Of a stretch of 29,213 nt of DNA, positions 10,810 to 26,156 are shown piece by piece. Position 1 is the stretch's first letter. Each line of letters starts with the position of its first letter. Source of the stretch: a virus (Duplodnaviria; Caudoviricetes); IMG/VR virus record IMGVR_UViG_3300044878_000197, positions 1 to 29,213 of that record. One strand, given 5' to 3'. The notes below the pieces were generated by a model, which saw only the letters and a list, made by a program, of their open reading frames with translations, was not told the DNA's origin and ran no database searches. The position numbers were made by a program, and so were the translations under genes.

Positions 10810-10834
10810 AAAGAAAAGCCGGCTTGCGCCGGCT
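10810..10834 (-). terminator. Intrinsic terminator after the relaxase gene
   Basis: AGCCGGC-GCAA-GCCGGCT plus T-rich tail. Confidence 0.8.
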
Positions 10835-10849
10835 GGTTACTGAGGTTGA

Positions 10850-12109
10850 TCAGGCCAGGTTGAGATCCTTTTGAAGCGGAGGTTGGTCAGGATGGAAAAT
10901 AGGGAACTCTTCGTTTGGATTCCATTCCGTGTACCCTGACCCTTTGGCGTTCCCTGGTTTAGCGGTGTAACGAACGCCACCAAATAGCATTTCCAGCAGT
11001 TTCATGATCATCTCGACAAGCTCCATTGCCTGGCGGTATGCGATTTCGGCTCTAACTTGATCACCGGTTTTTCCTGTGTTTCTAACCTTGAGTTTGATAA
11101 ATGGGGCTCTGGCGGTGTTTTCGGGGATAAAGTACATGTAGATCCAGCCCCGGTTTGAGTAGTATCTTGCTCCGTTTTTTCCGAAGACAGGCTGTTCTCC
11201 ACCCTTTCTATTTCTTCTTGAAACTTCAACTTTAAGCTGTGGAAGCATGCTTTGGTCATAACGTATTCCTTCTTGCCCTGTCAGTTTTTGCCAAGTGCAC
11301 CTGGCTTTTTTTAGTTTGCTGCCAGCGATAACTCTGTCGCCGTATTCATAGCTGATACCCTTCGGAGCCCCATTCACATCCATCCGCAGGTGGACGTATA
11401 CACCCTGCCTGCGAAGAGCCCTTACGAGCATGCACATGTCGCCGTTGCGCTCTTTGGTGCGCTTCACGCAGCCTGCGATCTTGGCCATGAGGCGATGCTC
11501 AAAAGGCATTGTGCCGGCCTTTTGGGCGCCAATCACAGTGCGCGCATCTACTGTTGGGTTCCACGACTTCTCCGGCCTCACAGCCTTTTTGAGCCCAAAC
11601 TTTTCTTCTAATGCCCACACGGCCTTCATATTCTTTTCGTGGTCATCCTTGTCGCTGATGACTTCGTAGCCTGGTTCGTTGCATATCCTGTTAATTACCA
11701 GGTGAACATGAGGGTTATCGGTGTCACCGTGGTAAGTTGCAACTACTTTGTTTGAACTTTTGAACCCCATCTCTTTGAGCCAGAAGATAACGGCCTCTCT
11801 CCATTGATCTTCATTAAGCCGCTCTTCCTTGTTGATTGAGAGAATCCAGTGGGCTATCGGCCTTAATGGAACTTTCCTGTTTCCCTCTGACCCAATCTTA
11901 AGCTTAGTTGGGACGTCCATATCTAATATCATTGACTCCATGTCATCTTCATCTTTGCGGTGTATTCCAATCTCAGGTCTAAATGCTGCACAGTTAGTAT
12001 AAATGGTCTTTATCTTAGATATGCCATGGTCATGTTTCTTACTTCCGTAGACATATCTAATTCTGTTTCTGGATGATCCTTTAGATGCTTTAAGCTTCTT
12101 ACCAATCAT
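10850..12109 (-). CDS. MOB_P (VirD2/TraI-like) relaxase
   Basis: Catalytic Tyr near the N-terminus (RIRYVYG), motif II AHWILS...EERL, 3H motif HGDTDNPHVHLVINRI, LEEKFGL, GISY. Confidence 0.93.
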   Translation of the reverse strand: MIGKKLKASKGSSRNRIRYVYGSKKHDHGISKIKTIYTNCAAFRPEIGIHRKDEDDMESMILDMDVPTKLKIGSEGNRKVPLRPIAHWILSINKEERLNEDQWREAVIFWLKEMGFKSSNKVVATYHGDTDNPHVHLVINRICNEPGYEVISDKDDHEKNMKAVWALEEKFGLKKAVRPEKSWNPTVDARTVIGAQKAGTMPFEHRLMAKIAGCVKRTKERNGDMCMLVRALRRQGVYVHLRMDVNGAPKGISYEYGDRVIAGSKLKKARCTWQKLTGQEGIRYDQSMLPQLKVEVSRRNRKGGEQPVFGKNGARYYSNRGWIYMYFIPENTARAPFIKLKVRNTGKTGDQVRAEIAYRQAMELVEMIMKLLEMLFGGVRYTAKPGNAKGSGYTEWNPNEEFPIFHPDQPPLQKDLNLA

Positions 12110-12479
12110 AGCCTTCCCCTTCTTCAGATATTTCGCTAAGTTTAACTACGTCGAGGTCTTTGTATATATACCTGATTATATTCATAATCTTCTTTTGGAT
12201 CTTGTGGTTCTCTTTCTTGTCATTTGGTATCAAATCAAAAAGCTCACTAAGATAAGTTCCGATCATGTCGATATCGGGACTGATCACGAACTTAGTCTTG
12301 TACTGCTTGTTGATTACGATGTCGCGGAACAGGGCTGATGCGGATGGATAGCCTGTGGCCTCTAGGACTTTGTTGACGATGACTCTATCCTCGGAGCTGA
12401 CTCGAACGTTAAAGCTTCCGTCAGACTTTGGTGGCTTTTTCTTCTTAGTTTCGGTTTTGGTGATGGTTTGGTCGGTCAT
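12099..12479 (-). CDS. MobC-like relaxosome accessory protein (ribbon-helix-helix)
   Basis: FNVRVSSEDR...ATGYPSASALFRD RHH pattern; overlaps the relaxase start. Confidence 0.75.
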   Translation of the reverse strand: MTDQTITKTETKKKKPPKSDGSFNVRVSSEDRVIVNKVLEATGYPSASALFRDIVINKQYKTKFVISPDIDMIGTYLSELFDLIPNDKKENHKIQKKIMNIIRYIYKDLDVVKLSEISEEGEGYDW

Positions 12480-12544
12480 GTCTTTTACTCTGTTTTGGTT
12501 TCAGCAGTTGCCTGCATAAATACAGAGTGCTCTTGGAGCAAAAC

Positions 12545-12680
12545 TACGCGCAACCCCCACAAGGGGGTGAGCAACAGATAAATCGAAGATTGAACGTCAG
12601 GAGTGTATACCGCTGACATAACTTGTTTCTTGTATAGCACTAGATTTCCCGCTCTCCACCTGGGTTTGTATACCATTGGC
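12545..12680 (+). other. Probable origin of transfer (oriT)
   Basis: Upstream of mobC; inverted repeats ACCCCC-ACAA-GGGGGT (12553-12568) and GTCAG...CTGAC (12596-12617), then ATAACTTG^T with RP4-like 8-nt spacing; contains GGAGTGTATAC as recalled from the ColE1/pBR322 bom site. Confidence 0.55.
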
Positions 12681-13599
12681 GAGGAAAATTGAGTGGCAAA
12701 AAAAAGATCGATCAGGCAGTTGATTTAGTGTCCCAGATTTCGACCTTTAACGACCTTTTTGATGCCTAGTGACCCATTTTGAGGACTTTGTGGGTTATCT
12801 GCTTCCACCCTCATCAATTCCAAAAAACACCAATCCAACACCCGCAGATCAAATTGATACTGAGCTAGGATCTGAGTGGTCTAGATTTGGATGGTTTGAT
12901 GGCTTTGAGTGTCCTGGGGCCCATCTTTTGATCTGGACTAGAGATATGGCGGCGGGCTATTGCGATGACTTCATGAGATTTACTCATGATGTTTGAGTGT
13001 GGCCAGGTGAATTTCCGGCAACTTAGTGGGATATATTGATTGTTGCTAAGTTATCAATAATTAGCCGCCGCATGCTGCGTCGAATGGACGAACTATTGAT
13101 GCTATTGATGTTTGCATGGCAACTATTGAGAACCACGCGAACATAATGCGCGAAGTAACGTGCGAAGTAATAGTAGGCCTTAAGATGAGGTGATTCTACG
13201 ATGTATGTTGCAGCACCTGTCAACTTATTTATCAACTTTAATCATCTTCTGTTTGTTTTATGATCAATATATTGCTCATATTGACAATCATTATCGACGG
13301 CCAACTCTTCGGCAATCATTCCATCCTGACCAACCTCCATCTTGCATCACCGCTGGAGATATTCCGATGTACTTGATATCGATTGTCATCATTCAGAACG
13401 ATTAAGTTCGCACTTGCTGCTGACCCGTAGATGATTATCTACTTACTTGAGAGTCATTGTTGTTTCTGTTTGTCTTTTTGCTTTTGTCTTTAAGTTCTTT
13501 TATTGCTGCTTATTGTCAATTCAAAAGTGCTTTGAATCAAAAACAAAACATTTAAAAGCTTGCCTGCTTACTGTAAAAAACCTTACGCAGGTTTGAGAG

Positions 13600-14030
13600 C
13601 TGAGGGTTTTCTTCTGGCAATACATCACCAAGAGCTTCGGATCCTCCCCGCCCCGTGAGGGGTTAGTTTTGATCGAAAAAGCCCTTAGCGATTGCCTAGA
13701 GATCCAACGCTGGCCCGAGCCGCCGATGGGATTCCCCTGGAGGCCATCAGGATGTGTCCCTGGCCCTGTCTAAGTCACGCCACACAGCGGCGCCAGATCA
13801 CCGTCTTAGACCGCCCCTACGCACTGACATCGCGACCGAGGATTGCTCCAGCATAGTCGCACCGCACGCACGTAGGAACTACTCATTCCGGTTGGGGTCG
13901 CGTCTGCGTCAGTATCCCAAATTCACGCCCGATTGCCCCGTCGTCACTATACCATCCACCGACAATCGCACGGCGAGCAAAGGTCGCGCCGGCAATTTAT
14001 CAACAATGCCACTGGACACGCAAGAGAAGC
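13600..14030 (-). ncRNA. Structured RNA, candidate ColE1 RNA II-like replication pre-primer and origin
   Basis: No credible ORF; nested stems (13823-13837 with 13896-13913, 13768-13774 with 13805-13811, 13742-13746 with 13761-13765); G tracts; blocks collinear with the remembered ColE1 origin. Confidence 0.55.
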
Positions 14031-14089
14031 CGAATATATTTCAGTGAATTGACAATAATGGTCACCGGAAACCAAAATGCCGAACCAAC

Positions 14090-14362
14090 ATGGAGCCAGG
14101 CATGAAAGACCCACACGACAGCTCGACCATCGACATAATCGCCAGCCAGTTCCCTGAGTCAGTCAAGCCAAGGCGAGGACGGCCACCGAAGGGCGCCAGG
14201 GCCCTCTCAGGCAGCGAAAAGAACAAAGCATACAGAGATCGCCAGGAAAAGCTTGGGCGTCGTCCCAGAACGCTCTGGCTAAGCGACAAAGAGGTTGAGG
14301 TAATCAGCAGGTGGCTTGACTCAAGTCGCACCAAAAGACTGTCGACGCCCAGGAGCTCCTGA
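14090..14362 (+). CDS. Small basic DNA-binding protein (AT-hook-like RRGRPP plus helix), candidate replicon regulator
   Basis: STIDI...KPRRGRPPKGARALSGSEKNKAYRDRQ...TLWLSDKE resembles YbfE/CopB-like small regulators; upstream TTGACA-N18-CAAAAT. Confidence 0.65.
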   Translation: MEPGMKDPHDSSTIDIIASQFPESVKPRRGRPPKGARALSGSEKNKAYRDRQEKLGRRPRTLWLSDKEVEVISRWLDSSRTKRLSTPRSS

Positions 14363-14518
14363 GAGCTCGTATAAGCGCGTCAGGCGCACAACCCTAGCGA
14401 GACATCAAAGAGGCTCGGGAAACGTCTGGTAGAGGGCGCCACGGAGGGGATGTTTTGACCTAAAGGCGTTTGCTTACAAACAAACGCTCAAGGTTGATCA
14501 GGAAGGAAAGTAGTCAGC

Positions 14519-14905
14519 TTAGGCTTGGCCTGGCGTAGGCATGACCTCGCATTCAATGTCTGGGTAAAGGTCAAGTCTCATGGCTCGCCCCGTGGCGGTC
14601 TCGGTAGATAACAGAGCATCGACCCACCGAGCTTTTTCGTATGCAATGGCCGCGTTTAGGGCGATCCTGATCGCAGCACCACTCCCCTTCGCAAAAACCC
14701 ACCGCTTACTCCCATTGACGCGCACCTTAACGCTTGGGACGTATTTTGCGATCACGCTGGCGTAGGTGCCAGGGACGTCCAGGAACTCGCCATCCTTTTC
14801 ATCAGTCACTGACATCCCGCGCATCATCTCGCCCGCTGATATCAGGGCACCGAGGTAAAAGGATCGGCCCAGCTTTGCGTATGCATCTTTGATAAAGTCG
14901 TACAT
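14519..14905 (-). CDS. Hypothetical protein
   Basis: 128 aa ORF starting directly after the heptad array; no clear RBS. Confidence 0.5.
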   Translation of the reverse strand: MYDFIKDAYAKLGRSFYLGALISAGEMMRGMSVTDEKDGEFLDVPGTYASVIAKYVPSVKVRVNGSKRWVFAKGSGAAIRIALNAAIAYEKARWVDALLSTETATGRAMRLDLYPDIECEVMPTPGQA

Positions 14906-14908
14906 TTT

Positions 14909-14992
14909 TCGGATCTCGGAATTCGGATTTCGGATAGTGCATATCGGATTGCAGACATCGGAGATCGGATTAGCGATATCGGATATCGGACA
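14909..14992. repeat. Heptad array (12 in-phase units, consensus TCGGATW), probable centromere (site B)
   Basis: TCGGATC TCGGAAT TCGGATT TCGGATA GTGCATA TCGGATT GCAGACA TCGGAGA TCGGATT AGCGATA TCGGATA TCGGACA directly downstream of the par operon. Confidence 0.8.
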
Positions 14993-14993
14993 T

Positions 14994-15020
14994 AAGAACC
15001 CCGCCGTTAAGCGGGGTCTT
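14994..15020 (-). terminator. Terminator of the par operon
   Basis: AAGACCCCGC/GCGGGGTTCTT hairpin. Confidence 0.65.
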
Positions 15021-15033
15021 GGTGGTGCAATTG

Positions 15034-15297
15034 TCAGATCACGCCCTGGGCCTTCAGCGCCTCGAGGATTACAGCACTGATCGACCTCGGCCCCGTCTTA
15101 GAGCGCTTGTTCTTCTCTACGATGGTCTGGATCTTCCAGCTATCGCTTTCCCTGAGGCTGACGGATAGCTTTGTCAGTGGATCATGCTCCGGCTTGTCCT
15201 CAACGGTCGGGGTGACACCGTAGGGGCGATCCGGGTTGGTGACTGCAGCAATCTGCGCCTCGGTCAGTTCCTTCCTTTCGCTTCGTGGCTTAGGCAT
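15034..15297 (-). CDS. Type Ib centromere-binding protein (ParG-like RHH)
   Basis: Small, coupled to parA; flexible N-terminus then LTKLSVSLRESD...SISAVILEAL. Confidence 0.75.
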   Translation of the reverse strand: MPKPRSERKELTEAQIAAVTNPDRPYGVTPTVEDKPEHDPLTKLSVSLRESDSWKIQTIVEKNKRSKTGPRSISAVILEALKAQGVI

Positions 15298-15961
15298 GAG
15301 CAAGAACCTCGTCTACAAAATCCAAGAGCTCTTTTTTGGCCTTGGCATTTTTCATCTCTGTCACAGCAAGGCCATTTTCCGAGGTGTCGATAAACACCTG
15401 GCGATTGCTATTGATGGACTCAAGCAATGTAAACGACGGGAAGTCATCTACGCACTTTTTGAACTGAGCGCGCTCTTTTTCCCGAATCTTGCAATTTGTC
15501 GAGGCCATGGTGTGATAAATCAACACAGGAGGAGCGTACCCGGTCGAATCCTTTATGAATTTCAACTGGGCCTCCAGTTCGTCCATCGTGTCCAGGTCGT
15601 ACTGCGAGCATTTGTATGGCGCGACGAGCAGATCTGCAATCGGCAGCGCGCTCACGAGTTCCGGGCTGATGCTGCCTGATACGTCAACGATGCAGTAGTC
15701 GTAGTCGCCGGCGATTGTCTTGATGTGCCCTGCAATAGCACCACGGCGGGAGCCGACAGTGATAACTGGAGTGGCATCGATGCTCTCGCGATAAGTGGCC
15801 CATTTGCTCGAGGAGTTTTGCTTGTCACAATCGAGGATGTAGACCTTGTTGCCCATCTGACCAAGCACAACGGCCAGGCCGGTAGCGGTAGTCGTTTTCG
15901 CCGTGCCGCCCTTATTGCAGCCGACGATGATGATTTTCATACGTTTTTTGGTAGCGTTCAT
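15290..15961 (-). CDS. parA: ParA family partition ATPase (short, type Ib)
   Basis: Deviant Walker A KGGTAKTT, LDCDKQNS, YDYCIVD; no N-terminal HTH. Confidence 0.93.
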   Translation of the reverse strand: MNATKKRMKIIIVGCNKGGTAKTTTATGLAVVLGQMGNKVYILDCDKQNSSSKWATYRESIDATPVITVGSRRGAIAGHIKTIAGDYDYCIVDVSGSISPELVSALPIADLLVAPYKCSQYDLDTMDELEAQLKFIKDSTGYAPPVLIYHTMASTNCKIREKERAQFKKCVDDFPSFTLLESINSNRQVFIDTSENGLAVTEMKNAKAKKELLDFVDEVLAHA

Positions 15962-15982
15962 TTTTTATACCCTTGGTCGTTT

Positions 15983-16060
15983 TATCCGATATCGGATTTC
16001 TTACTTCGGATATCTGAGATCCGATTAACTACATAGTAGCACGGATCTCATAGCTGTCAA
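15983..16060 (-). promoter_or_regulatory. par promoter with a heptad operator array (site C)
   Basis: TTGACA-N16-TACTAT with extended TG (16033-16060); six heptads in mixed orientation at 15983-16024. Confidence 0.75.
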
Positions 16061-16080
16061 CACTATATGTAATATATTTA

Positions 16081-16452
16081 TTACTTAATGTCGGCATCTG
16101 GCTTTGCAGGCCGCAGCTTGTGCTTGCATATCAGACCGGATACGTAGTTCCTGCTGACACCGGCAAGCTCTGCAATCTGAACGTTTGAAAGCCCCTCCAG
16201 CGCGCCCTGCTTGACGATCTTCATGGTCGCCTCAGCTTTGGCCAGCCTCTTGGGGTTGTAGCTGACAGCCGTCTTTTTATGAGCGGCCTTTTTATCTTCG
16301 ACAGCAAAGCCAAGGTCATATGCGGTGACCCCCATCTTGATCACCTGGATCTCACCGCCAGTAGCTATGAAATCTTCGACGGCCTTGTCCAGATCAATTT
16401 GGATAGGGGCTTTGTATTTGCTCGCGTTTTCGAAAGAATATGGGTTAAACAT
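16081..16452 (-). CDS. SutA-like RNA polymerase-binding segment fused to a C-terminal HTH
   Basis: LDKAVEDFIATGGEIQVI resembles the remembered SutA core LAKAMEEFLSRGGKVQEI; GLSNVQIAELAGVSRNYVSGLI HTH; start set at ATG 16452. Confidence 0.65.
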   Translation of the reverse strand: MFNPYSFENASKYKAPIQIDLDKAVEDFIATGGEIQVIKMGVTAYDLGFAVEDKKAAHKKTAVSYNPKRLAKAEATMKIVKQGALEGLSNVQIAELAGVSRNYVSGLICKHKLRPAKPDADIK

Positions 16453-16522
16453 TTTTTGACTCACACATATATATAGTAGTGGGAGCCTCAGCCCCCACCG
16501 GAAACATTGGGGAGGCGTTGCG

Positions 16523-16945
16523 TCAGGCCAGGTAATGGGCCGCCGCGAATGGGATGTCATCATCTTTGAGCGGTGACTGATCCGGGCCATTGGTGCCCTG
16601 CTGGGACTGCTCAGCCGCTGCGGCTTCAGCGCCCTTGCCACCGGCCAGCTTGACGGTCACAGCGCGTCCGGCGAGCTTGTACTTGACCGACTGATCTTTG
16701 CCCGAAAAAGTTTCGACATGAACATCATCTGCGGAAAAGTAGACCTGCTGGCCGGACTTCAACAGCGGCGCAAAGGTCTCGGCCTGCTTAGCCCAGAACG
16801 TAAGGTCGATCCATTGCGTTGGGCGCTTGCCGTCTTCGCCTTTTACGCCATGTTCATAGGCTACTGGTACGGTAAAAACGGAGGTGCCATTTGCTGTGGT
16901 GCGCAACTCTGCATCGCGACCAACACGGCCAAGATTCGAAAGCAT
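16523..16945 (-). CDS. ssb: Single-stranded DNA-binding protein
   Basis: GRVGRDAELRTT OB-fold start, TQWIDLTFW, acidic DDDIPF near the C-terminus. Confidence 0.93.
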   Translation of the reverse strand: MLSNLGRVGRDAELRTTANGTSVFTVPVAYEHGVKGEDGKRPTQWIDLTFWAKQAETFAPLLKSGQQVYFSADDVHVETFSGKDQSVKYKLAGRAVTVKLAGGKGAEAAAAEQSQQGTNGPDQSPLKDDDIPFAAAHYLA

Positions 16946-16976
16946 ATAAATTCTCTATATATAAAGGAGGGGCGAC

Positions 16977-17132
16977 TTATCGTCGCTTACGCTCAAGAAT
17001 GCGGATTTTGACTTCGGCACAACCTCTGGACATGGCAAAGCCAACGCATTTGCGTGTCGCTACGTCGAGTATGTGGAAAAAATCAGATGAGGCCTGGATG
17101 GCCTGGTAGTGCTGCTGGGATGTTGTTTCCAT
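16977..17132 (-). CDS. Small phage protein (51 aa)
   Basis: ATG 17132 after GAGAGA; FFHILDVATRKCVGF resembles small Pseudomonas prophage proteins. Confidence 0.6.
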   Translation of the reverse strand: METTSQQHYQAIQASSDFFHILDVATRKCVGFAMSRGCAEVKIRILERKRR

Positions 17133-17144
17133 TTCGATTCTCTC

Positions 17145-17340
17145 GTCTCTTTGTGATTTTTGGTGTCCGTCTTTCCGGACTGTCAGACCCTGTGTAGCTG
17201 CACGGACGGGCCCGTCCGACTGTAAGCCATGAGTAGGCCGCAGCTGCATCCATTTATTGACGTACCGAACGCTCGGGCCATGGATGACCGTCACAGCTAA
17301 TTCGGCAGCGCTCCCGAACGGCGCACGGTTAGCTAACGAA
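17145..17340 (-). ncRNA. Structured 5' leader of the leftward early transcript
   Basis: Successive stems AGCTAA/TTAGCT, CATCCAT/ATGGATG, AGCTGC/GCAGCT enclosing CGGACGG/CCGTCCG, and GTCCG-GAAAGA-CGGAC. Confidence 0.55.
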
Positions 17341-17344
17341 GGCA

Positions 17345-17373
17345 AGACTACGATGCGTATAGGCCTCTGTCAA
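17345..17373 (-). promoter_or_regulatory. Leftward early promoter
   Basis: TTGACA-N17-TAGTCT. Confidence 0.75.
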
Positions 17374-17395
17374 TATATGTCAAATCTTTGGACGC

Positions 17396-17420
17396 AAAAA
17401 AGCCCGCGCTTGGCGGGCTT
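17396..17420 (-). terminator. Terminator after the repressor gene
   Basis: AAGCCCGC/GCGGGCTT stem plus T run. Confidence 0.8.
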
Positions 17421-17441
17421 CATGTTTTTTGGTGTATTGAC

Positions 17442-18035
17442 TTACCGACGTTTTGTCCAGCTACCGGTTACGACGCCGATGACATTGCCGCCGAAATGCT
17501 CCTTGGTGCCGGACATCAAAAAGTGACCTTCGTGGGTGTCCATGAACTTGCAGAGGCCGTGACCCTCGGCAATCACAAAGTCGCCGTTGCGAGGGTGTAC
17601 CTGCGGGTCGACAAGAATGATCTCTTTGCTGCGGAAGTCAGGCAGATGGCTGTCTCCAGCCACCTCCAGGCAAAAGGCTTCACTGGAAGCGCTGAATGGC
17701 GTTACCAGGCTCTCGAGATGGCTCGAGCGTGGGATCGTGGTTCCTTGTGTTGGAATGGCGCTCCAGGAGATCAAGGGGGCTCTGGTGGCCGCGTCGATGT
17801 CTCTGGTCAAGACCGGATAGACCAGGAACTCTGGGATGTGGCACTCTCGGAGGATGCGATTGATCTGATCAAGATTTGGCTGTCTAGTGTTGTTGAGCCA
17901 GTGGCCAATACCTCCCTGAGTAACGCCGAGGCGCTGAGCCATTTCGGACTGGGTGATGCGCAGAGCAAGCATTTGTTCACGGACAGCCGCTTGCCATGGC
18001 TGGGCTTTGCGCGAATTTATGATCAGCATCTGCAT
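17442..18035 (-). CDS. CI-like prophage repressor (HTH plus S24-type domain)
   Basis: ITQSEMAQRLGVTQGGIGHWLNNTRQPNL HTH; AFCLEVAGDS...IILVDP...GDFVIA; divergent from cro. Confidence 0.9.
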   Translation of the reverse strand: MQMLIINSRKAQPWQAAVREQMLALRITQSEMAQRLGVTQGGIGHWLNNTRQPNLDQINRILRECHIPEFLVYPVLTRDIDAATRAPLISWSAIPTQGTTIPRSSHLESLVTPFSASSEAFCLEVAGDSHLPDFRSKEIILVDPQVHPRNGDFVIAEGHGLCKFMDTHEGHFLMSGTKEHFGGNVIGVVTGSWTKRR

Positions 18036-18067
18036 TTGTATATCTCCAAAATATTTATGGATATCTA

Positions 18068-18098
18068 TTGTGTTGAGTTGAACACATACCGTATTATG
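18068..18098 (+). promoter_or_regulatory. Rightward (cro) promoter with operator
   Basis: TTGTGT-N18-TATTAT; TTGAACAC-ATACC-GTATTATG at 18078-18098 matches the early-cassette operators. Confidence 0.65.
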
Positions 18099-18131
18099 AA
18101 ACTAGAATAACGATAACGCAAGGAGATTCAC

Positions 18132-18350
18132 ATGAATTGCATCAAAAAGTACAGGATTTTGGCGGGTTTGCAGCAATCAGAGCTAGGCAAGGAGATGGGC
18201 CTTACCCAGGGCGCGATCTCTCACTGGGAGCTTGGAGCTCGTCAGCCGAGCATCTCGGCATGCCGCCAAATCCTCGCAATCATCAGGGCGCATGGTGTAG
18301 ATTGCTCATTAGATGACATGTTTCCTGCCGAAGAAGAGATTGCAGCTTGA
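18132..18350 (+). CDS. cro: Cro-like XRE regulator
   Basis: LQQSELGKEMGLTQGAISHWELGARQPS...CSLDDMFP; AAGGAG RBS. Confidence 0.9.
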   Translation: MNCIKKYRILAGLQQSELGKEMGLTQGAISHWELGARQPSISACRQILAIIRAHGVDCSLDDMFPAEEEIAA

Positions 18351-18359
18351 AATGCAGGC

Positions 18360-18387
18360 AAAAAAAACCCGGCGTGAGCCGGGCTTT
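18360..18387. terminator. Terminator-like hairpin after cro
   Basis: A8-CCCGGC/GCCGGG-CTTT. Confidence 0.6.
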
Positions 18388-18478
18388 AAAAAGAGTTGGA
18401 GCTCTGCAAAAGCTCCAACAGGACTCGACCAAGAGTCATTCACCAGATGAACCACCAAGAACATAAGGTAAATACATT

Positions 18479-19690
18479 ATGACGCAGAATATTACTAACT
18501 GCAATAGCAATACTGGCAATTTGTCACGACGCTTCAAAGGCGTGTGGATTCCGAGCGATCTGTGGCTTAACAGTGAACTGTCCATGACAGAGAAATTCCT
18601 GTTACTCGAAGTCGACAGCTACGAAGACGAAGAGCTGGGATATTGCTATGCCACCAACGGCTGGCTCGGTAAGCACCTCCAGCTTTCCAAAAATCGCATC
18701 TCCTCTGCGCTGGCAAGTCTGGCTGCCAAGGATTTGATCAAAATTGACACCTTTATGAGAGGCAGGGTTTCGGAGAGGCGTCTTTTTGTTGTCAACCCGA
18801 TTGAGGATTACGCCGAGGGTGCGGCGGCAACTCAGGCAACTGATGCAGACCCTACCGCAAGGCCATTTAAAGGCATCTGGATCACCAAGTCGGTTTGGCT
18901 CAATGAATCCCTGAACCTGACGCAAAAGGCTCTCCTGGCCGAGATCAATGCCCTGCAGACAAAAGAGAGGGGTTGCTACGCTGGCAATGAGTTCTTCGCT
19001 AATCGCTTTGGCATGACCAAAAAGCATGTTTCCGACGTAATCAGCTTACTCGCTAAGTCTGGATTCGTTTCTGTGCATCAGGTTCGCGATGGTCTAATTA
19101 CCGTGGAGCGCCGCATTTTCGTTGAAAAAATTGATTCAACGATGAAGTTGTCCGGAAATATGGAAGGGTCTAAAGGGGGTTCCAGGAAACAGGAGAACTC
19201 CACCAGGAAACAGGACAACCGATCCACGAAACAGGACAACCATTCCAAATATCCGGAACATAGAGAATCAGTAAGAGAATCAGATAAAAAATCAGGAGGG
19301 CAATACGCTGCTGCGCAGCTAGCCCCCCAAAAGGTTAAACAGGAAAGAAAGTCATTGGGTGAAGCACAGCAGGAGCAAAGGAGCGAAGGCGACTTTGATC
19401 CGAAGACCATCCCGTACGAGGCGATCAAGGATTTGTACAACGAGATCCTGGGTGAGACCAACGGCAAGTGCCTGGGGATCAACGCTTCACATAAAAAACT
19501 GATCCTTTCCTCGTACAACCTAAAGATAAATGACGAGTACCTGGCCAGGGTCGATGGCATGGACTTTTGGGAGGGCCTCTTCAACGATGTTCTTGATAGC
19601 GCCTACCTGATGAGGATCCGTGCTCCATTCGACTTCCTGATCAGCCCCGTGAAGATCCAGAAGCTCCTTGAAGGCCAGTACCACGACTGA
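18479..19690 (+). CDS. Phage replication initiator (O-like) with two tandem winged-HTH domains
   Basis: Duplicated FKG(V/I)WI...WLN..L..T.K.LL.E unit, internal iterons, C-terminal PYEAIKDLYNEIL...FDFLI...LLEGQY. Confidence 0.85.
   Translation: MTQNITNCNSNTGNLSRRFKGVWIPSDLWLNSELSMTEKFLLLEVDSYEDEELGYCYATNGWLGKHLQLSKNRISSALASLAAKDLIKIDTFMRGRVSERRLFVVNPIEDYAEGAAATQATDADPTARPFKGIWITKSVWLNESLNLTQKALLAEINALQTKERGCYAGNEFFANRFGMTKKHVSDVISLLAKSGFVSVHQVRDGLITVERRIFVEKIDSTMKLSGNMEGSKGGSRKQENSTRKQDNRSTKQDNHSKYPEHRESVRESDKKSGGQYAAAQLAPQKVKQERKSLGEAQQEQRSEGDFDPKTIPYEAIKDLYNEILGETNGKCLGINASHKKLILSSYNLKINDEYLARVDGMDFWEGLFNDVLDSAYLMRIRAPFDFLISPVKIQKLLEGQYHD
19182..19297 (+). repeat. Lambda-type origin within the initiator gene
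   Basis: Three 21-bp units CCA(G/C)GAAACAGGA(G/C)AAC at 19182, 19203 and 19224, then A-rich 12-bp repeats AGAGAATCAG at 19262-19297. Confidence 0.75.
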
Positions 19691-19861
19691 TCGACACTTC
19701 GCCCCACAGGGGCGGCTAAGGCCCAAGGAAGGGCCACATAGAAACTAGCCGAGCTAACGCTCGAAGGAACGATCTCTCGACAAGCAAAGCCCCAACAATC
19801 CTTTGCCTGACCAACCTCAAAAAGCAGTTGTCAATTTATTTGAAAATAATTACACAAAGTG

Positions 19862-19892
19862 TTGTACACATAATACGCTCCGTTGTATTATG
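19862..19892 (+). promoter_or_regulatory. Promoter for the helicase gene with an operator-like palindrome
   Basis: TTGTAC-N18-TATTAT; CATAATAC-N8-GTATTATG. Confidence 0.6.
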
Positions 19893-19934
19893 ACCATATA
19901 GAGAGCTTAAGCTCCGAACCAAAAGGAATCGACC

Positions 19935-21311
19935 ATGAAAAACGCAGCCATTAGACCGCTTGAAGCAGTAAACGCCGAGGAAGGCATCCTTTACACAATG
20001 ATGTACTCAGAGGAACTCTGTGTTGAGTTCGGAGCACAGCTTACCAAGCAGGATTTCAGCAACCATGACAATTCGGCCCTGTTTGACCTGATCTTGGCTT
20101 GCCATCGCAAGCAGCTTCCGACTGACATGGTCACGATCAGCAATATGCTCGAAATTCTGCCATCGAAAAAGCCAACAATCGCAGCGATCATGGAACTCGA
20201 CTACAAGTGCGTAGGCGTGACTGATCCTCGCGGCTACGTGACGATCCTCAAGGAGCGCTCCAAGGCTCGCAAGATGTACGAGCTGGGCCAGAGGCTCATG
20301 GAGATGTCCAAAGAGCCCGGCGACGTCCTGGATCAAGTCGCACTGGCACAAACGCTGGCAATGCAGCTGACATCTTCCGATGACACATCCGACGTCAAAA
20401 TGTTCGGTGTTGCACTCGACAGCGTGATGGACAAGATGCACCGCCGCCACGCCGGGGAAGTCGTAACCGGGATCTCATTTGGCCTGGATGACCTCGATGC
20501 CATCGTTCAAGACCTTCGAGCAGGCAACCTCGGCATCATTGCTGGTCGACCTGGCACGGGCAAAACTGTTCTAGGCCTTGGCCTGGCTGAGCGAATCGCC
20601 TTTAAAAAGGGCGGCGCCTCACTGGTTTTTTCCCTGGAAATGCAATCAGACGAGCTTGCCAAACGCTCCCTGTCGTCGTTCTCGGGCGTTAACCAGCAGT
20701 GGATCGATACCGGCCTGGCAGTAGACGACAAAATGGCAATGTCGAAGCTGGAAAGCTCAGTGAAGAGCATCCGTGAGGCCGACATGCGGATCATCGACAA
20801 GCCTGGCCTGACTTTTGATCGCATCTGCTCGATTGCCCGCTTCCAGCACCGGATAAAAAAGCTCGACGTAATCATCATCGACTACCTTGGCCTGATTTCA
20901 TCTGATCCATCGGCTCGCTGGCAGAACCGGAACCAGGAGCTGGGCTCGTACACCAGGGGCTTCAAGCAACTTGCGAAGGAACTCGGAATCCCGGTAATCG
21001 TGCTCTGCCAGCTCAACCGTGAAATCGAATCGCGCCCTGACCCTACGCCAAAAATGTCAGACCTGCGTGACTCCGGTGAGATCGAGCAGGACGCCGACGT
21101 GATCATCATGGCCCACCGCGACATGAGCTCTGAGCGGGGCAAGAACGGCATCACAGAACTTTACGTTGTGAAAGTCCGTCATGCCCAACCAGGAAACTGC
21201 CTCTTGCAATTCCGTGGCGAAATTGCTCGCTTTGAGAATTGCGCGGAGAAGTTCGAAGATCGCCCTGCAGCAAAAGATCGCAAGTCTCTCAGAGCACGCG
21301 CAGCCGCATAA
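19935..21311 (+). CDS. dnaB: DnaB-like replicative helicase
   Basis: IAGRPGTGKT, FSLEM, IIIDYLGL, LCQLNR, SDLRDSGEIEQDAD. Confidence 0.97.
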   Translation: MKNAAIRPLEAVNAEEGILYTMMYSEELCVEFGAQLTKQDFSNHDNSALFDLILACHRKQLPTDMVTISNMLEILPSKKPTIAAIMELDYKCVGVTDPRGYVTILKERSKARKMYELGQRLMEMSKEPGDVLDQVALAQTLAMQLTSSDDTSDVKMFGVALDSVMDKMHRRHAGEVVTGISFGLDDLDAIVQDLRAGNLGIIAGRPGTGKTVLGLGLAERIAFKKGGASLVFSLEMQSDELAKRSLSSFSGVNQQWIDTGLAVDDKMAMSKLESSVKSIREADMRIIDKPGLTFDRICSIARFQHRIKKLDVIIIDYLGLISSDPSARWQNRNQELGSYTRGFKQLAKELGIPVIVLCQLNREIESRPDPTPKMSDLRDSGEIEQDADVIIMAHRDMSSERGKNGITELYVVKVRHAQPGNCLLQFRGEIARFENCAEKFEDRPAAKDRKSLRARAAA

Positions 21312-21323
21312 TTGTCAATTCTC

Positions 21324-21353
21324 AAAAAAACAAGGGGCCGAAAGGCCCCATTT
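21324..21353. terminator. Bidirectional terminator between convergent dnaB and DHFR
   Basis: GGGGCC-GAAA-GGCCCC flanked by A and T runs. Confidence 0.75.
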
Positions 21354-21869
21354 TCATTTGCGTTCCCAGACTTCAAAGCTGTGTGCTGGGTAATCCCCGT
21401 CCTTTTGGCGAGGATCATTGCTGACCATCTCCCAATCGCACTGATCAAATTCCGGGAAATAGGCGTCACCGTCCGGCTCGACGTCGATTCGGGTCAAATA
21501 CAGGCGGTCAGCGTAATCCATGCCAAGGTCATAAAGCTCGGCCCCGCCGATAATCATGACCTCATCGACCAAGGCTTTCTTTGCAAACAATTCTGCAGCC
21601 GCAACGGCCCCAGCCAGGCTCGAATGCACCGAAGCCCCATCAAGCTCAATGCCCTTTTGGCGAGAAACGACGATGTTCAGCCGTCCAGGCAACGGGCGAA
21701 CTGGCAAGGATTCCCAGGTTTTCCGGCCCATAATGATGGGTTTTCCCATCGTTTTCGACTTAAAGTGCCTGAAATCAGCCGGAAGGTGCCATGGCATGCG
21801 GTTGTCGACGCCGATGACGCCGTTGATGGCCTGTGCTGCGATTACGCTGAGAGAAATACCTGCATCCAT
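21354..21869 (-). CDS. folA: Dihydrofolate reductase
   Basis: NGVIG..NRMPWHLPADFRHFK, IMGRKTWESL, RPLPGRLNIVVSR, IIGGAELY, GDAYFP. Confidence 0.96.
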   Translation of the reverse strand: MDAGISLSVIAAQAINGVIGVDNRMPWHLPADFRHFKSKTMGKPIIMGRKTWESLPVRPLPGRLNIVVSRQKGIELDGASVHSSLAGAVAAAELFAKKALVDEVMIIGGAELYDLGMDYADRLYLTRIDVEPDGDAYFPEFDQCDWEMVSNDPRQKDGDYPAHSFEVWERK

Positions 21870-22012
21870 TACGTATAAATCCACTGTGTCAATTCATGTG
21901 TATTTGGCAAATATAATACATATGTCAATGTGTGCATAATGTTGCGTTTGCAAAACATGTCAATTCATTGCGATCATCGTCAAATAATCACACTTCAACA
22001 TATTGTCAATCT

Positions 22013-22234
22013 ATGACTAATGATCTCGACGGAAGGGGGAAACCCTGCCCGAACTGCAGTTTACCCCTGATTTCACTGGCATCCCAGTTCGTCAGGGTCT
22101 GCGGAACCGGCTGTAAGGCCGAATTCCCGTGGCACCTGGCTGAAAACCAAAAGCCCCTGATGGGACATCACCGGCAAGATAGGCAGTCCATTGAAAAAGC
22201 ACAATCACTATCACAAAGACGTCAAACACCTTGA
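22013..22234 (+). CDS. Small Zn-ribbon-like protein
   Basis: CPNC...CGTGC. Confidence 0.5.
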   Translation: MTNDLDGRGKPCPNCSLPLISLASQFVRVCGTGCKAEFPWHLAENQKPLMGHHRQDRQSIEKAQSLSQRRQTP

Positions 22235-22559
22235 TTTCATTGACGTTTATCGCGTCCTTGAGCTCTTCAATGTGACTGATCCCTGCATCCAGCATGCGGT
22301 CAAGAAACTCCTATGCGCCGGTATCCGGGGTGCCAAGAGTCTCGAAAAGGACTATGGCGAAGCCCAGGACTCCATCGTCCGCGCCTTGGAAATGATCGCC
22401 GAGGATGCCAGCAGCATCGTGATCTCGATCCCTGGCAAGCGTGTCATCTGGCCAGACACCGACGACTCTCCGCGTCAGCAGCGGATCGAGCAAAGCGGTG
22501 AGTTGGCCGAGATTTACGAAGTCCTAGACAAAATGGCTGGGCCCGGTGAGCGAGGCTGA
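22191..22559 (+). CDS. Conserved phage hypothetical protein (DUF3310-like)
   Basis: NHYHKDV...IDVYRVLELFNVTDPCIQHAVKKLLCAGIRGAK. Confidence 0.75.
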   Translation: MKKHNHYHKDVKHLDFIDVYRVLELFNVTDPCIQHAVKKLLCAGIRGAKSLEKDYGEAQDSIVRALEMIAEDASSIVISIPGKRVIWPDTDDSPRQQRIEQSGELAEIYEVLDKMAGPGERG

Positions 22560-22938
22560 GGACGCCCTGTACGCCGATCTCTGGTCGCAGGGCGTCGACG
22601 TTGAGCGTGAGTACCGTTTCGCAGCGGAAGCTTGTGGCGGGTCTGGCAAGGGCGTCAGGAAGCGACTCAAGGCTGTAGGGCTCAGGGACTGGAGGTCTGA
22701 CTTCGTTATCCATGACCGCAAGCTACTGATCGAGGTAGAAGGCGGAGGTTGGACAGGTGGCAGACATATTCGGGGTGCCGGGTTTGAGGAGGATTTGCAA
22801 AAGTACGACGCCGCAGTGCGGCTGGGCTGGACTGTTTACCGATGCTCTCCTGGGATGATCAATTCCGGCCAGGCGATCAGCACAATCATGCAACTTATCG
22901 ATGGGAATCGACAAAATGGCACAACGCAAAGCGACTGA
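22546..22938 (+). CDS. PD-(D/E)XK/Vsr-like phage endonuclease
   Basis: EYRF...WRSDF...LIEVEGG.W..GRH.RG.GF..D..KY..A...GW. Confidence 0.85.
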   Translation: MSEAEDALYADLWSQGVDVEREYRFAAEACGGSGKGVRKRLKAVGLRDWRSDFVIHDRKLLIEVEGGGWTGGRHIRGAGFEEDLQKYDAAVRLGWTVYRCSPGMINSGQAISTIMQLIDGNRQNGTTQSD

Positions 22939-24049
22939 CGCAGAAATCAAACTCGCACTCGAGACAATGAGCGCAGGCAAGGCAGCCAAGCACCTTGGCA
23001 TCAACAAGCGAACGCTTTTTGCCCGCAAAGCAAAGATGGCCCGGCAGGGCTGGTCGCCTGAACACGACATGACCAAGGAAGTCCCTGACGGTTTTCATTT
23101 GAAGGGCACTTCGACCCTTTACGATGAAAATGGCGTGGCGAAATTGCAGTGGGTCAAGACGTCGATTGACCATGAACGTCAGCAAGAGTTGATTGCTGAG
23201 GGCCTGAAGGCCATGGCTTCCGAGCTGCCGAAGGTCGAGCCACGCGAGTTTTACAAGTCCACAGACGCGAATCTGTTGGCTGTCTACCCAATCGGCGATG
23301 CCCACATTGGCATGTACGCAAACAAAGCAGAATCAGGCCAGGATTGGGATCTGAAGTCGATTGAGCGCATCCAGTGTGCTGCGATGGCCAGCCTTGTCGA
23401 ATCGGCTCCTCCTACGAAACAAGCCTTGATTATCAATTGCGGAGATTGGTTCCATGCAGACAATGCGGCTGGCGTGACATCACGTAGCCATCATAGCCTC
23501 GATATGTCTGGCCGGTACTTCGAGATGATTCATGTTGGCATCAAGGTGATGCGTCAATGTATTGAATCTGCGCTGCTTAAGCACGAGACCGTCAAAGTAT
23601 TCAATGTCACTGGAAACCATGACGACCTTGGCTCTTGCTGGCTCGCCGTTGCGCTGTCGCACACATACGAAAACGAACCTAGAGTTATCATCGAGACGTC
23701 CCCTGCCCCCTTCCTGTATCACGAGCATGGCAAAGTGCTGATCGGTGCGCACCACGGACACAGTTGCAAAGCAGAGCGCCTGCCAGGCGTGATGGCTGCT
23801 GACCAGGCTCCTGCCTGGGGCCGTACCGTTTACCGATATTGGTACTTGGGCCATGTCCATCACCAAAGCGTCAAAGAGTACGCCGGTGTAACGGTCGAAT
23901 CTTTTAATACCCTGGCCGCAAAAGACGCCTATTCGGCCTGGGGCGGTTACCGTGCTCAGCAAAACATGAAGTGCATTGTCCTGCACGCAGAATACGGCGA
24001 AGTCGGGCGTTACACCGTAAACCCCGATATGCTAAAGTCCGTGGCCTGA
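22916..24049 (+). CDS. Calcineurin-like metallophosphoesterase with N-terminal HTH
   Basis: GDAHIG, GDWFH, GNHD, HHGH and GHVHH motifs; KAAKHLGINKRTL HTH. Confidence 0.88.
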   Translation: MAQRKATDAEIKLALETMSAGKAAKHLGINKRTLFARKAKMARQGWSPEHDMTKEVPDGFHLKGTSTLYDENGVAKLQWVKTSIDHERQQELIAEGLKAMASELPKVEPREFYKSTDANLLAVYPIGDAHIGMYANKAESGQDWDLKSIERIQCAAMASLVESAPPTKQALIINCGDWFHADNAAGVTSRSHHSLDMSGRYFEMIHVGIKVMRQCIESALLKHETVKVFNVTGNHDDLGSCWLAVALSHTYENEPRVIIETSPAPFLYHEHGKVLIGAHHGHSCKAERLPGVMAADQAPAWGRTVYRYWYLGHVHHQSVKEYAGVTVESFNTLAAKDAYSAWGGYRAQQNMKCIVLHAEYGEVGRYTVNPDMLKSVA

Positions 24050-24078
24050 CAATTTACGGATAATGTTAAAGGGTTTTT

Positions 24079-24339
24079 ATGTGCCACAAATGTGATGAAA
24101 AAGCTGCACAGGGTATCGTGATGGAGCCGTTTAATTTTGACGACACTGTCAGCAATGTCGCGGATGGCCTGAGGGCGGCGATTGATCGCGATATCATCAA
24201 GGCACTTAATCGCCGTGGCATAGACCCAAAAAATCTCACGGCAGCTGATTTCTTTGATGGAGGGAAAATTGATTTGCTTGCCAGGGAGGTCAGCAAGTTC
24301 ATTCCGCGTGTTGGCTACAAGACTCAGGAGATGAAATAA
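24079..24339 (+). CDS. Hypothetical protein
   Basis: 86 aa in a tightly packed operon. Confidence 0.6.
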   Translation: MCHKCDEKAAQGIVMEPFNFDDTVSNVADGLRAAIDRDIIKALNRRGIDPKNLTAADFFDGGKIDLLAREVSKFIPRVGYKTQEMK

Positions 24340-24648
24340 ATGATTGGGTCTATACCAGGTATTTGGCACGAAAGGATGATTGGCTCCCTGCACGAAGTCA
24401 TGATGGAGCCTTTGCGGAGAGCGGCGAGGCGTAAAGCCGAAGCTCATCAAAAATTGAGGCGCATGTACCGAGGCCGGCTTAGCGACAAGCAAAAGCCAAT
24501 TCACAGCAAGGCTGAATTCTTGAAAGCAATGCCTCGCTGGGCAATGCTTGCCTCGTATAAGCGACATCGTGCTCAGCAAAAAACCATAACATTCAAGGTA
24601 TCAGACATTGTCTTTGACTTTGATGATGCCAAAACAACTGCAATTTGA
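24340..24648 (+). CDS. Hypothetical basic protein
   Basis: 102 aa; starts directly after the previous stop. Confidence 0.55.
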   Translation: MIGSIPGIWHERMIGSLHEVMMEPLRRAARRKAEAHQKLRRMYRGRLSDKQKPIHSKAEFLKAMPRWAMLASYKRHRAQQKTITFKVSDIVFDFDDAKTTAI

Positions 24649-24658
24649 GATCAATGAA

Positions 24659-24895
24659 ATGACCCAAAAAACCACAATTGAAGACATTGTCACCGCCTGC
24701 GCCGTCCTAGACGCTGCGCCTGTCGAGGATCGTTACATTGTTTTTACCGAAAAAGGCCTTGTCCATGTCAAAGATGGCCTGGTCATAACGGTCGTCGAGG
24801 ACGATGACGAGGAAGACTTCCTTGCCGGCGCCAAGCCCGATGAAGTGCCGACTGCATGCTCCCTCGAAAATGGTGCGTGCGAAGCCTGCCAATAG
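24659..24895 (+). CDS. Small acidic protein ending in an NrdA-like CxxC tail
   Basis: Ends ACSLENGACEACQ; followed by a terminator. Confidence 0.65.
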   Translation: MTQKTTIEDIVTACAVLDAAPVEDRYIVFTEKGLVHVKDGLVITVVEDDDEEDFLAGAKPDEVPTACSLENGACEACQ

Positions 24896-24910
24896 GTCTG
24901 CTTTGATGCC

Positions 24911-24937
24911 AAAGGCCCCTTGATTGGGGCTTTTTTG
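24911..24937 (+). terminator. Intrinsic terminator
   Basis: GGCCCC/GGGGCT stem plus T run. Confidence 0.8.
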
Positions 24938-25137
24938 TGACTGGATGGTGGGCCCAGCCGCAAAAAAAGGAGAGTTAAATGGGCGTGTTACAGATCCATA
25001 TTTGGTGCTTTGAGCCACAAGGAAGGCCGGAAAACCTATTCTCCTTTTTTTCCGGTTGACCTGGATATAAGTCATGGAGGAATTTGACGCCTTGCGCTTG
25101 AGGCGAATCGCCTAGCCTGAGCTTTGCCTCGCGCACG

Positions 25138-25323
25138 TTTTTAAAGTTTTTAAAGTTATTAAATCTTTTTGGGGCTGGAGGCCTTGTAGCACGTGGCCTG
25201 CAGAGCATTTCATCTCCCTCGCTTCCGGTCAGATCTCCCTCGGATCCGGTGAGTTCGCCCTCGGATCCGGTTAATTCTCCTTTTTTTCCGGTCAGATCTC
25301 CCTCGGATCCGGTGTTATCCACA
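25138..25323. repeat. Plasmid iteron origin
   Basis: AT-rich TTTTAAAGT repeats (25138-25170); five 21-bp iterons, consensus CAGATCTCCCTCGGATCCGGT (25209-25313); DnaA box TTATCCACA (25315-25323). Confidence 0.92.
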
Positions 25324-25388
25324 AGCAAATTCCACTTGTATGCGGGCATTTTTGCAGCTATTCTCCCTAAATAATCAAAAAGGAGAGT

Positions 25389-26156
25389 ATGGTGGAGATT
25401 GATGAGCAAATCATTGAGGTGGATGGCCAATTGACGGCAAGGCGCGTGACGATGGCTAATGCCTTAGCCAGAGCTGCCCATAGCCTGACATTCTCGGAAA
25501 AGCGCCTTGTTTGCATCGCAATCTCGAAACTTGATAGCAAAAAGGCTAGGCAACCAAACGAGATCATCAGGACAAAGATCACGGCTTTTGAGTTCGCCGA
25601 AGCTTTCAAAGTTGACATCGACACCGCCTACAATCAGCTAAAGAGTGCCAGTGGCAACCTGATGAAGCGCCATGTAGAGATCTATAGACCGGCATTCCGT
25701 AGGGGTGGAAAGCCGCTACCTGACACCGTAGTTCGAATGCAATGGGTTGGAGAGGCAGCCTACCAGGTTGGGGAAGGCTGGATCGAGCTAGCATGGTGGC
25801 CTGCGATAATTCCGCACCTGACAGGCCTGAAGAAGAACTTTACGACCTACCTGCTCCAGCAGACAGTCGGACTTAGGACTCTGAGCTCCTGGCGCCTCCT
25901 TGAGCTGCTAACGAGCTTTTCCACGAACGGTTGGCTAGAGATCCCTATCGAAGACTTCTACAAGTCGATGGAAGTCACTGAGAAGCAGCAGCAAGACTTT
26001 GCTAAGGTGCGCACCAAACACATTGAGCCGGCCATTGCAGAGCTTCATGCTAAGGATGGGTGGAAAATCTCCTGGAAGCCAATCAAGTCAGGCAGAAAGG
26101 TAGTGGCTCTTCGATTCGACTTTAAGCGAGATGACCAGCTAAGGATGGATGTTTGA
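25389..26156 (+). CDS. Plasmid replication initiator, Rep_3 (RepB) family
   Basis: VTMANALARAAHSLTFSEKRL, SSWRLLELL, IEPAIAEL, KSGRKVVALRF; directly after iterons and DnaA box. Confidence 0.93.
   Translation: MVEIDEQIIEVDGQLTARRVTMANALARAAHSLTFSEKRLVCIAISKLDSKKARQPNEIIRTKITAFEFAEAFKVDIDTAYNQLKSASGNLMKRHVEIYRPAFRRGGKPLPDTVVRMQWVGEAAYQVGEGWIELAWWPAIIPHLTGLKKNFTTYLLQQTVGLRTLSSWRLLELLTSFSTNGWLEIPIEDFYKSMEVTEKQQQDFAKVRTKHIEPAIAELHAKDGWKISWKPIKSGRKVVALRFDFKRDDQLRMDV

Follow-up and report, generated by a model that had tools for sequence, protein, structure and literature searches.

The window analysed here is the whole of the IMG/VR virus record IMGVR_UViG_3300044878_000197, 29,213 bp long and listed as linear with a completeness of 48%, and it carries a mobilisation (mob) module, consisting of a relaxase gene, a mobC-like gene and a candidate origin of transfer (oriT), among the genes of a tailed phage (Table 1). 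Comparison with two related virus records, G001 and G007, identified the window as a 29-kb piece of a podovirus-like genome of about 50 kb. From the left, the minus strand encodes the portal protein, the large and small terminase subunits (TerL, TerS), Rz, an endolysin, a holin, a set of small genes, the relaxase and a 126-amino-acid (aa) open reading frame (ORF), followed by a ParG-sized ORF, ParA, a SutA-domain protein, SSB and cI. After cI the plus strand encodes cro, an O-like initiator, DnaB, an exonuclease, Rep3 and a 326-aa ORF. At the right end the minus strand carries two virion-type genes, and the terminal genes at both window ends share one orientation. The packaging, lysis and immunity genes named in a first-pass annotation of this DNA were borne out by profile searches, which matched the portal, TerL, TerS, Rz, endolysin, holin, cI and cro and also ParA and Rep3.

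The relaxase matched PF03432 with a score of 66 bits against a cut-off of 24.6, and contained a single N-terminal catalytic tyrosine and an HxDxxxxHxH motif within that domain. These residues (Y19, H127, D129, H134 and H136, spaced as H-x-D-x4-H-x-H) were invariant in 20 homologues. The best NCBIfam model was TraI_MobP_relax (E 3e-17, below cut-off), and because the NCBIfam cut-offs were not reached we call the protein MOB_P-like. A Foldseek search with its predicted model (mean pLDDT 71) placed the NES, TrwC, MobA and MobM relaxases on top, all with E>0.001, and a PDB sequence search with the relaxase alignment gave no match. No match in PLSDB covered 80% of the relaxase and all 1031 were less than 60% identical; the 30 matches listed were 23-39% identical over at most 32%. 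Only distant partial matches were observed among GenBank phages. The predicted MobC, the 126-aa ORF, had no Pfam match itself, but the NikA-like family PF21983 was matched by 11 of 12 aligned homologues (E<=0.05), and weak PDB matches of the MobC profile (E 0.04-0.06) included PcfF and NikA. This ORF is 56% identical to that of G001, with a ratio of nonsynonymous to synonymous divergence (dN/dS) of 0.28. No coupling protein (PF10412) was found in any of the three records, so transfer would need a helper; the scanned ORFs likewise gave no matches to type IV secretion systems (T4SS).

Upstream of mobC lie a hairpin and an inverted repeat followed by a short block, and all of these were conserved across seven aligned loci, namely those of the three phage-plasmids, three from islands and one from a siphoprophage. 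In each of the five sequences tested the inverted repeat folds despite differing arms, with z values for the whole stretch of -1.3 to -4.4, and about 8 nt past it there is a conserved G. This candidate nick region presumably resembles ColE1-type sites, a likeness for which we found no literature source. Because an inverted repeat followed by the nick is the usual arrangement (PMC3772185), we predict a nick on the plus strand at 12625/12626, 8 nt after the repeat. With an open relaxase frame, invariant catalytic residues and a candidate oriT conserved at seven loci, the proposal that the mob module is intact was upheld.

G001 was retrieved through the relaxase as the single close virus record, and is a 100% complete circular assembly of 49,374 bp with direct terminal repeats (127 bp). 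It is syntenic with the window at approximately 70% nucleotide identity, mob module included (73.8% over window positions 10814-12694). The approximately 19 kb of G001 between the points matching the window ends hold capsid, adaptor, tail fibre and internal virion genes, and the C-terminal part of the DNA-transfer-like protein at the right end of the window matches the end of a 782-aa protein of G001 (PHROG 770). G007 (51,424 bp, 92% complete), retrieved through ParA, has the virion module in common with the window, along with ParA (50% identity), RepO (30%) and the 326-aa ORF (52%), and encodes a relaxase (34.5%) with MobC on the parA side, as in the window. In both G001 and G007 the virion genes, including those for the capsid, adaptor, tail fibre and internal virion proteins, are open frames. 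Scans of IMG/VR with the oriT pattern and with RepO returned only G001, and a scan with the 326-aa ORF returned only G001 and G007. A further record found by ParA at 45%, G008, was rejected as a member; it is a 26%-complete fragment with neither a relaxase nor other shared genes. P0002, P0021, P0022 and P0025 may be additional members. We also observed a dihydrofolate reductase gene among small cassette genes in G007 (L137:12541-13107).

Of 175 TerL relatives 80 were kept, and 37 of these, with contigs at least about 40 kb long, were tested. None of the 37 encoded a relaxase, and 29 encoded a tyrosine integrase (19 of 21 among those at least 90% complete). In a TerL tree of 25 rows, with rows whose best match held a stop left out, the window, G001 and G007 formed one clade (98/98) nested among mostly integrating relatives. 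Loss of the integrase and gain of the par and mob genes thus mark one lineage, and the search for relatives with and without the module that had been proposed at the outset yielded both, two with it and 37 without. By portal, no close plasmid or phage record was found (best 37%). A podovirus-type portal was observed on four PLSDB plasmids of 54-87 kb (NZ_CP090492.1, NZ_CP024609.1, CP061838.1 and NZ_CP103299.1) at 25-37% identity; all are typed as non-mobilisable, and they may be little-described phage-plasmids without a relaxase.

Several functions in the window are of the plasmid type. A 21-bp iteron in 4.9 copies lies upstream of Rep3, and between the two is a 9-mer (25315-25323) that we take to be DnaA-box-like. 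The nearest Rep proteins are found on plasmids of 4-8 kb, the best being 59% identical to that of a Pseudomonas plasmid. Rep3 was detected in two of the three records (the window and G001), each time with iterons, and in the same position, but the two proteins are only 26% identical and the iterons are 21 bp and 22 bp, respectively (G001 L125:3616-4850), a pattern indicating that Rep3 and its iterons were swapped between the window and G001. The O-like initiator carries internal 21-bp repeats (19180-19247). ParA was present in all three records, and the 7-bp repeat arrays flanking parA and parG in two of three: G007 has arrays of a different sequence at matching positions, and a Tandem Repeats Finder search at the matching positions of G001 found none. 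These arrays are a candidate, likely co-evolving centromere. Arrays of 7-bp repeats were also observed elsewhere in the window (5990-6016 and 27345-27457, the latter after the 326-aa ORF); those of G007 lie at L135 5984-6081, 6380-6473 and 7866-7959. Neither a tyrosine integrase (PF00589) nor a serine resolvase (PF00239) was found in any of the three records. The initial description of a circular, integrase-free episome fits the complete circular G001, the third member G007 and this lack of an integrase, while its ParA/ParG partition system and Rep_3 iteron replicon were confirmed for ParA, Rep3 and the iterons; ParG, with no profile match, is assigned by position and size only.

Selection on these genes was estimated from 20 gene pairs between the window and G001 (NG86 method), with the synonymous divergence (dS) near saturation and the ratios therefore approximate. 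The relaxase, 77% identical between the two, had a dS of 1.27, equal to that of the backbone, and a dN/dS of 0.128, which indicates that it is under purifying selection. Most virion and replication genes had a dN/dS of 0.05-0.35, e.g. DnaB 0.12, RepO 0.17, portal 0.21 and endolysin 0.14, with portal, TerS, endolysin and holin all at 0.14-0.21. Higher values were found for Rz (0.86) and one small gene (0.59), and TerL was saturated. That the relaxase has diverged no less than the backbone, and under purifying selection, speaks against a phage in decay. The mob module has a GC content of 45.9% against 52.5% for the backbone, below all 453 segments of the same size outside it (minimum 47.5%), in line with the impression in the first-pass annotation that the module is more AT-rich. 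The value is alike in the three genomes (0.459, 0.464 and 0.465), so AT-richness does not date a capture. For read support we used a Logan assembly that may be of the source run. A single contig spans window positions 9000-12657 with no joint and no differences, no joints to other DNA were found near the module, and depth was 8.85 to the left and 8.2 to the right of it, with short low-depth pieces between. A terminal repeat sought in the 29,213-bp window itself was not found. The divergence, selection and contig evidence largely refutes a chimeric or recently co-integrated mob module.

Beyond the phage-plasmids, the closest relaxases (53-57% identity) were observed on Pseudomonas chromosomes and metagenome contigs, several of them in islands and several adjoining defence genes or an integrase. 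No virion gene and no homologue of the other genes of the window was found within 10 kb of the island loci. These MobC-relaxase-oriT units have the form of integrative mobilisable elements (IMEs), in which a relaxase is known to serve for mobilisation. The relaxase family was present in 16 of 401 Pseudomonas genomes. In a relaxase tree of 24 of 48 rows, the window and G001 relaxases grouped with the island branch (99/99) and that of G007 fell outside. As the phage-plasmid relaxases do not form one clade, the module must either have been replaced at its site or have been transferred onward to islands. The lineage thus keeps a mob slot and a replicon slot while their contents are swapped, which argues for selection on function. 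The proposed capture of a small plasmid was not supported: besides the shared GC content and the dS of the module, PLSDB held no close match, the 53-57% kin are chromosomal, and Rep3 lies 13 kb from the mob module and was exchanged separately.

A more distant branch of the relaxase family adjoins siphovirus tail genes in 21 of 26 viral loci (L113/L144, L116, L154-L178). These belong to integrating siphovirus-like prophages of an unrelated lineage, which carry the related relaxase and a NikA-like gene at the tail end. An integrase was present in all five siphoprophage records tested, and head, packaging or tail genes in G002, G003 and G005. In G002 (333-47005) the mob module lies inside a tRNA-Ser att duplication; att repeats were found around this siphoprophage only, and none in G003/G011, G004 or G005.

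The host is likely Pseudomonas, because of the kin of the relaxase, the SutA domain, the best Rep3 match and the TerL genes at 66% identity in G256 and G067. No isolate with the phage-plasmid was found among the genomes searched. The 326-aa ORF is a putative AcrVA2/FinQ-like gene: 26 of 30 Atlas feature matches were AcrVA2-like (score 0.97), the predicted models of the two superpose with a TM of 0.57, and H280-x-R282-x-x-H285 has the spacing of H286/R288/H291 in AcrVA2. A PDB sequence search with its alignment gave no match. A C-terminal HxR motif is described for AcrVA2 and FinQ, and FinQ inhibits F transfer (10.1101/2022.11.29.518452). The AcrVA2-like marker was found in 2 of 401 Pseudomonas genomes, on large contigs. 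We also observed that the gene adjoins parG in G007 and that homologues occur on Pseudomonas megaplasmids.

Table 1. Features of the 29,213-bp window, with the matches on which each assignment is based.
Feature	Position	Strand	Evidence and remarks
Portal protein (podovirus/SU10-like)	147-2771	-	PHROG 332/1216; PF23899 below cut-off; 64% to G001
Terminase large subunit (TerL)	3159-4829	-	PHROG 2; 72% to G001, 67% to G007
Terminase small subunit (TerS)	4974-5510	-	PHROG 1206
Rz	5507-5977	-	Lysis block; PF03245
Unknown 155-aa ORF	within lysis block 5507-7124	-	
Endolysin	6365-6907	-	Lysis block; PF00959
Holin	6882-7124	-	Holin PHROGs
Run of small unknown genes	7429-10734	-	Repeat families D4, D6, D7; partly common to G001
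MOB_P-like HUH relaxase, 419 aa	10850-12109	-	Open frame; PF03432
MobC/NikA-like ribbon-helix-helix accessory protein (predicted), 126 aa	12099-12479	-	Overlaps start of relaxase
Candidate oriT	12540-12640	+	Hairpin 12548-12573; inverted repeat 12596-12617
Small protein, weakly UrfF-like	14090-14362	+	NF041430, E 6e-9, below cut-off
Partition module with flanking 7-bp repeat arrays	14909-16032	-	Arrays 14909-14998 and 15983-16032
ParG-like	15034-15297	-	Position and size only
ParA	15290-15940	-	PF13614, NF041546
SutA-RBD-like protein and SSB	16081-16945	-	PF20661 just below cut-off; PF00436
cI-like, helix-turn-helix (HTH) plus S24	17442-18035	-	PF01381, PF00717; PHROG 3/4
cro-like	18132-18350	+	Immunity switch with cI; PHROG 3/4
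O-like initiator and DnaB helicase	18479-21311	+	PHROG 270 and 19; PF03796
Exonuclease-like protein	22901-24049	+	PHROG 704
Plasmid replicon	25137-26156	+	AT-rich repeats 25137-25163; iterons 25212-25313; Rep3 25389-26156
AcrVA2/FinQ-like protein, 326 aa	26149-27129	+	In all three members
Ends of virion/injection genes	27853-29195	-	InPase-domain protein, PF18823

Among the remaining genes, the small genes to the left of the relaxase gave no family matches in profile searches. Three of those at 7429-10834 have a repeated AT-rich promoter-like motif upstream, with 17-bp spacing, and terminator-like hairpins lie between the small genes; a generic scan for sigma-70 promoters and terminators over 7100-13800 was at or below chance. 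These small genes are candidates for early host-takeover or anti-defence genes. The UrfF-like protein was also observed in G001 and weakly in G007. The protein with the SutA RNA-polymerase-binding domain (RBD; 16081-16470) is a phage gene retained in all three members.

In its virion, packaging and lysis genes, lysogeny switch, Rep, partition and lack of an integrase, the element is like the phage-plasmids P1, N15 and SSU5 and the families of Pfeifer et al. 2021 (PMC7969092), and it differs from them in its size of about 50 kb and its podovirus-like portal with a best match of 37%. P1-derived mobilisable plasmids also join a phage backbone to a relaxase or oriT, but have lost essential phage genes (PMC10879196), whereas here the virion genes are conserved beside the relaxase. 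With MOB_P mobilisable plasmids and IMEs the element has in common the MobC/NikA-relaxase-oriT unit, the tyrosine and HxDxxxxHxH motif, the repeat before the predicted nick and the lack of mating-pair genes; here the unit lies inside a complete tailed-phage genome, the relaxase is divergent and the canonical nick motif is absent. The lytic-type (O/DnaB) and plasmid-type (Rep3) initiators are separate, as they are in P1. The Pseudomonas siphoprophages combine a related relaxase (33-43% identity) and a NikA-like MobC with a tailed-phage genome, but have a siphovirus-like tail, their own integrase, a chromosomal insertion and a virion module unrelated to that of the window. Prophages that move from cell to cell are described in Streptococcus Phi1207.3 (PMC4260502) and in tandems of a phage with an integrative and conjugative element (ICE) (PMC13651849). 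Both are integrated, whereas the element here appears to be an episome with its own relaxosome; the tandems use the relaxase and T4SS of the adjacent ICE, and the accessible text on Phi1207.3 makes no mention of a relaxase and leaves the mechanism open.

The statement in the first-pass annotation that relaxases are generally missing from described phage-plasmids is in keeping with the accessible parts of three papers (PMC10879196, PMC12282955, PMC10123127). One of these reports that no phage-plasmid was found to be conjugative and that prophages may be mobilised by ICEs (PMC12282955), and another lists conjugation elements in 6 of 222 Escherichia coli phage-plasmids, of about 175 kb, as possible co-integrates or artefacts (PMC10123127). 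Conjugation-type genes in phage-plasmids are elsewhere described as sporadic (10.1101/2025.08.29.673033, 10.1101/2025.11.07.687105); general background is given in PMC7969092, PMC11389934, PMC13478746, 10.1101/2024.01.30.577996 and 10.64898/2026.01.13.699239. As far as these accounts go, relaxase-bearing phage-plasmids are rare exceptions, oversized co-integrates or plasmids that have lost phage genes (PMC10123127, PMC10879196). The literature searched, which took in few subscription papers, contained no report of a phage-plasmid family that is capsid-sized and in which a relaxosome is conserved; relaxase-bearing elements may be listed in Fig. S14 of PMC10123127 and in Table S4 of PMC7969092.

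We consider it reasonably probable that the window belongs to a temperate podovirus-like genome of about 50 kb, likely a plasmid, with a relaxosome that is conserved in its lineage and would let it be mobilised by the machinery of a co-resident plasmid or ICE. Helper-dependent conjugative transfer is, with a similar and moderate degree of confidence, the most likely purpose of the mob genes. The element appears to work like the product of an ancient fusion between a phage-plasmid and a mobilisable element. Rep3 and its iterons, together with ParA/ParG, would hold the lysogen as a low-copy plasmid, and cleavage of cI would bring about the switch to O/DnaB replication, packaging and lysis. MobC on oriT would aid the relaxase in nicking after the inverted repeat, at the predicted site, and a coupling protein and T4SS from the helper would export the relaxase-bound plus strand with the par/ssb side first and mob last. 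The element would then re-establish as a plasmid prophage, with no need for the virion receptor and without killing of the donor.

Several observations weigh against this interpretation. Virion production and mating are predicted from gene content, no isolate stands behind any of the three records and the host is therefore deduced as well, and the near-saturated dS leaves the selection ratios rough. A circular assembly alone, as would also come from a terminally redundant lytic genome, is not proof of a plasmid state. In G007, Rep3, DnaB and an S24-type cI were not detected (by Pfam, and for Rep also by Atlas), which leaves ParA and the absence of an integrase as the grounds for regarding it as a plasmid. 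We observed there one HTH regulator and 22-bp iterons inside repO (L135 8970-11531), and the O-like initiator may by itself support plasmid replication of G007. The curated MOB_P models were missed by the relaxase (NF041893, 62.6 bits against 250; NF041450, 32 against 200), and a single clade of the three phage-plasmid relaxases was rejected by the AU test (p 2.7e-7), with a long branch. The canonical MOB_P nick motif, (C/T)ATCCTG(C/T) (PMC3772185), is absent from the candidate oriT, and its two matches in the window both lie outside oriT, against 3.3 expected by chance. Finally, the absence of a detected resolvase leaves room for a role of the relaxase inside the cell.

Such an intracellular job, either initiation of rolling-circle concatemers in lytic growth or oriT-specific resolution of dimers, is an alternative that we regard as unlikely. 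HUH relaxases can serve as replication initiators, and P1 carries Cre-lox, whereas no tyrosine or serine recombinase for dimer resolution was found in the three records here; the relaxase family is also strongly tied to phages through the siphoprophage loci. The element, however, already has two replicons, O/DnaB and Rep3, the 37 TerL relatives tested package DNA without any relaxase, and the MobC-relaxase-oriT unit also occurs in islands without nearby virion genes. A role in conflict with conjugative elements, in which the module would act together with the FinQ-like gene, or a module that is island cargo and is mobilised rarely or incidentally, seems quite improbable. The presence of the FinQ-like gene in all three members, the effect of FinQ on F transfer and the exchange of relaxases with island lineages would fit it, but the relaxase is under apparent purifying selection with its own conserved oriT in cis, and the FinQ-like gene is unlinked to the mob module in two of the three genomes.

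The window lacks capsid and tail genes, and a path from phage to mobilisable plasmid has been described for P1-derived plasmids (PMC10879196), but we give very little weight to a defective phage on such a path: the genes that it lacks correspond exactly to the gap between its contig ends, and G001 and G007 have them as open frames; the dN/dS given above is low for portal, TerS, endolysin and holin, and genome sizes stay at 49-51 kb. Hardly credible is a chimeric assembly or a recent co-integrate of phage and plasmid, as the relaxase-bearing E. coli phage-plasmids have been read (PMC10123127). The Logan assembly is indeed in short pieces at 12657-13304 and near 16200, but the module occupies the same place in three records that have diverged by 25-65%, has the dS of the backbone, and no joints to other DNA were found near it.

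With helper-dependent mobilisation of a phage-plasmid as the preferred reading, we lean slightly towards a broader one, namely a stable class of temperate phage that can spread in three ways: vertically as a plasmid, lytically as a virion, and non-lethally by hitching on conjugation. One relaxase family would have been recruited at least twice in Pseudomonas phages, in the plasmid podovirus lineage and in the integrating siphoviruses, and traded with chromosomal mobilisable islands. The lineage described here is capsid-sized and holds virion genes and a relaxosome, both apparently under selection, and its 1.9-kb module makes it testable whether one element can gain from both viral and conjugative transfer. 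If the reading is true, these phages could enter hosts without the matching receptor, receptors would not set the limit of a prophage's host range, and a class would escape tools that assign elements to either phage or mobilisable plasmid.

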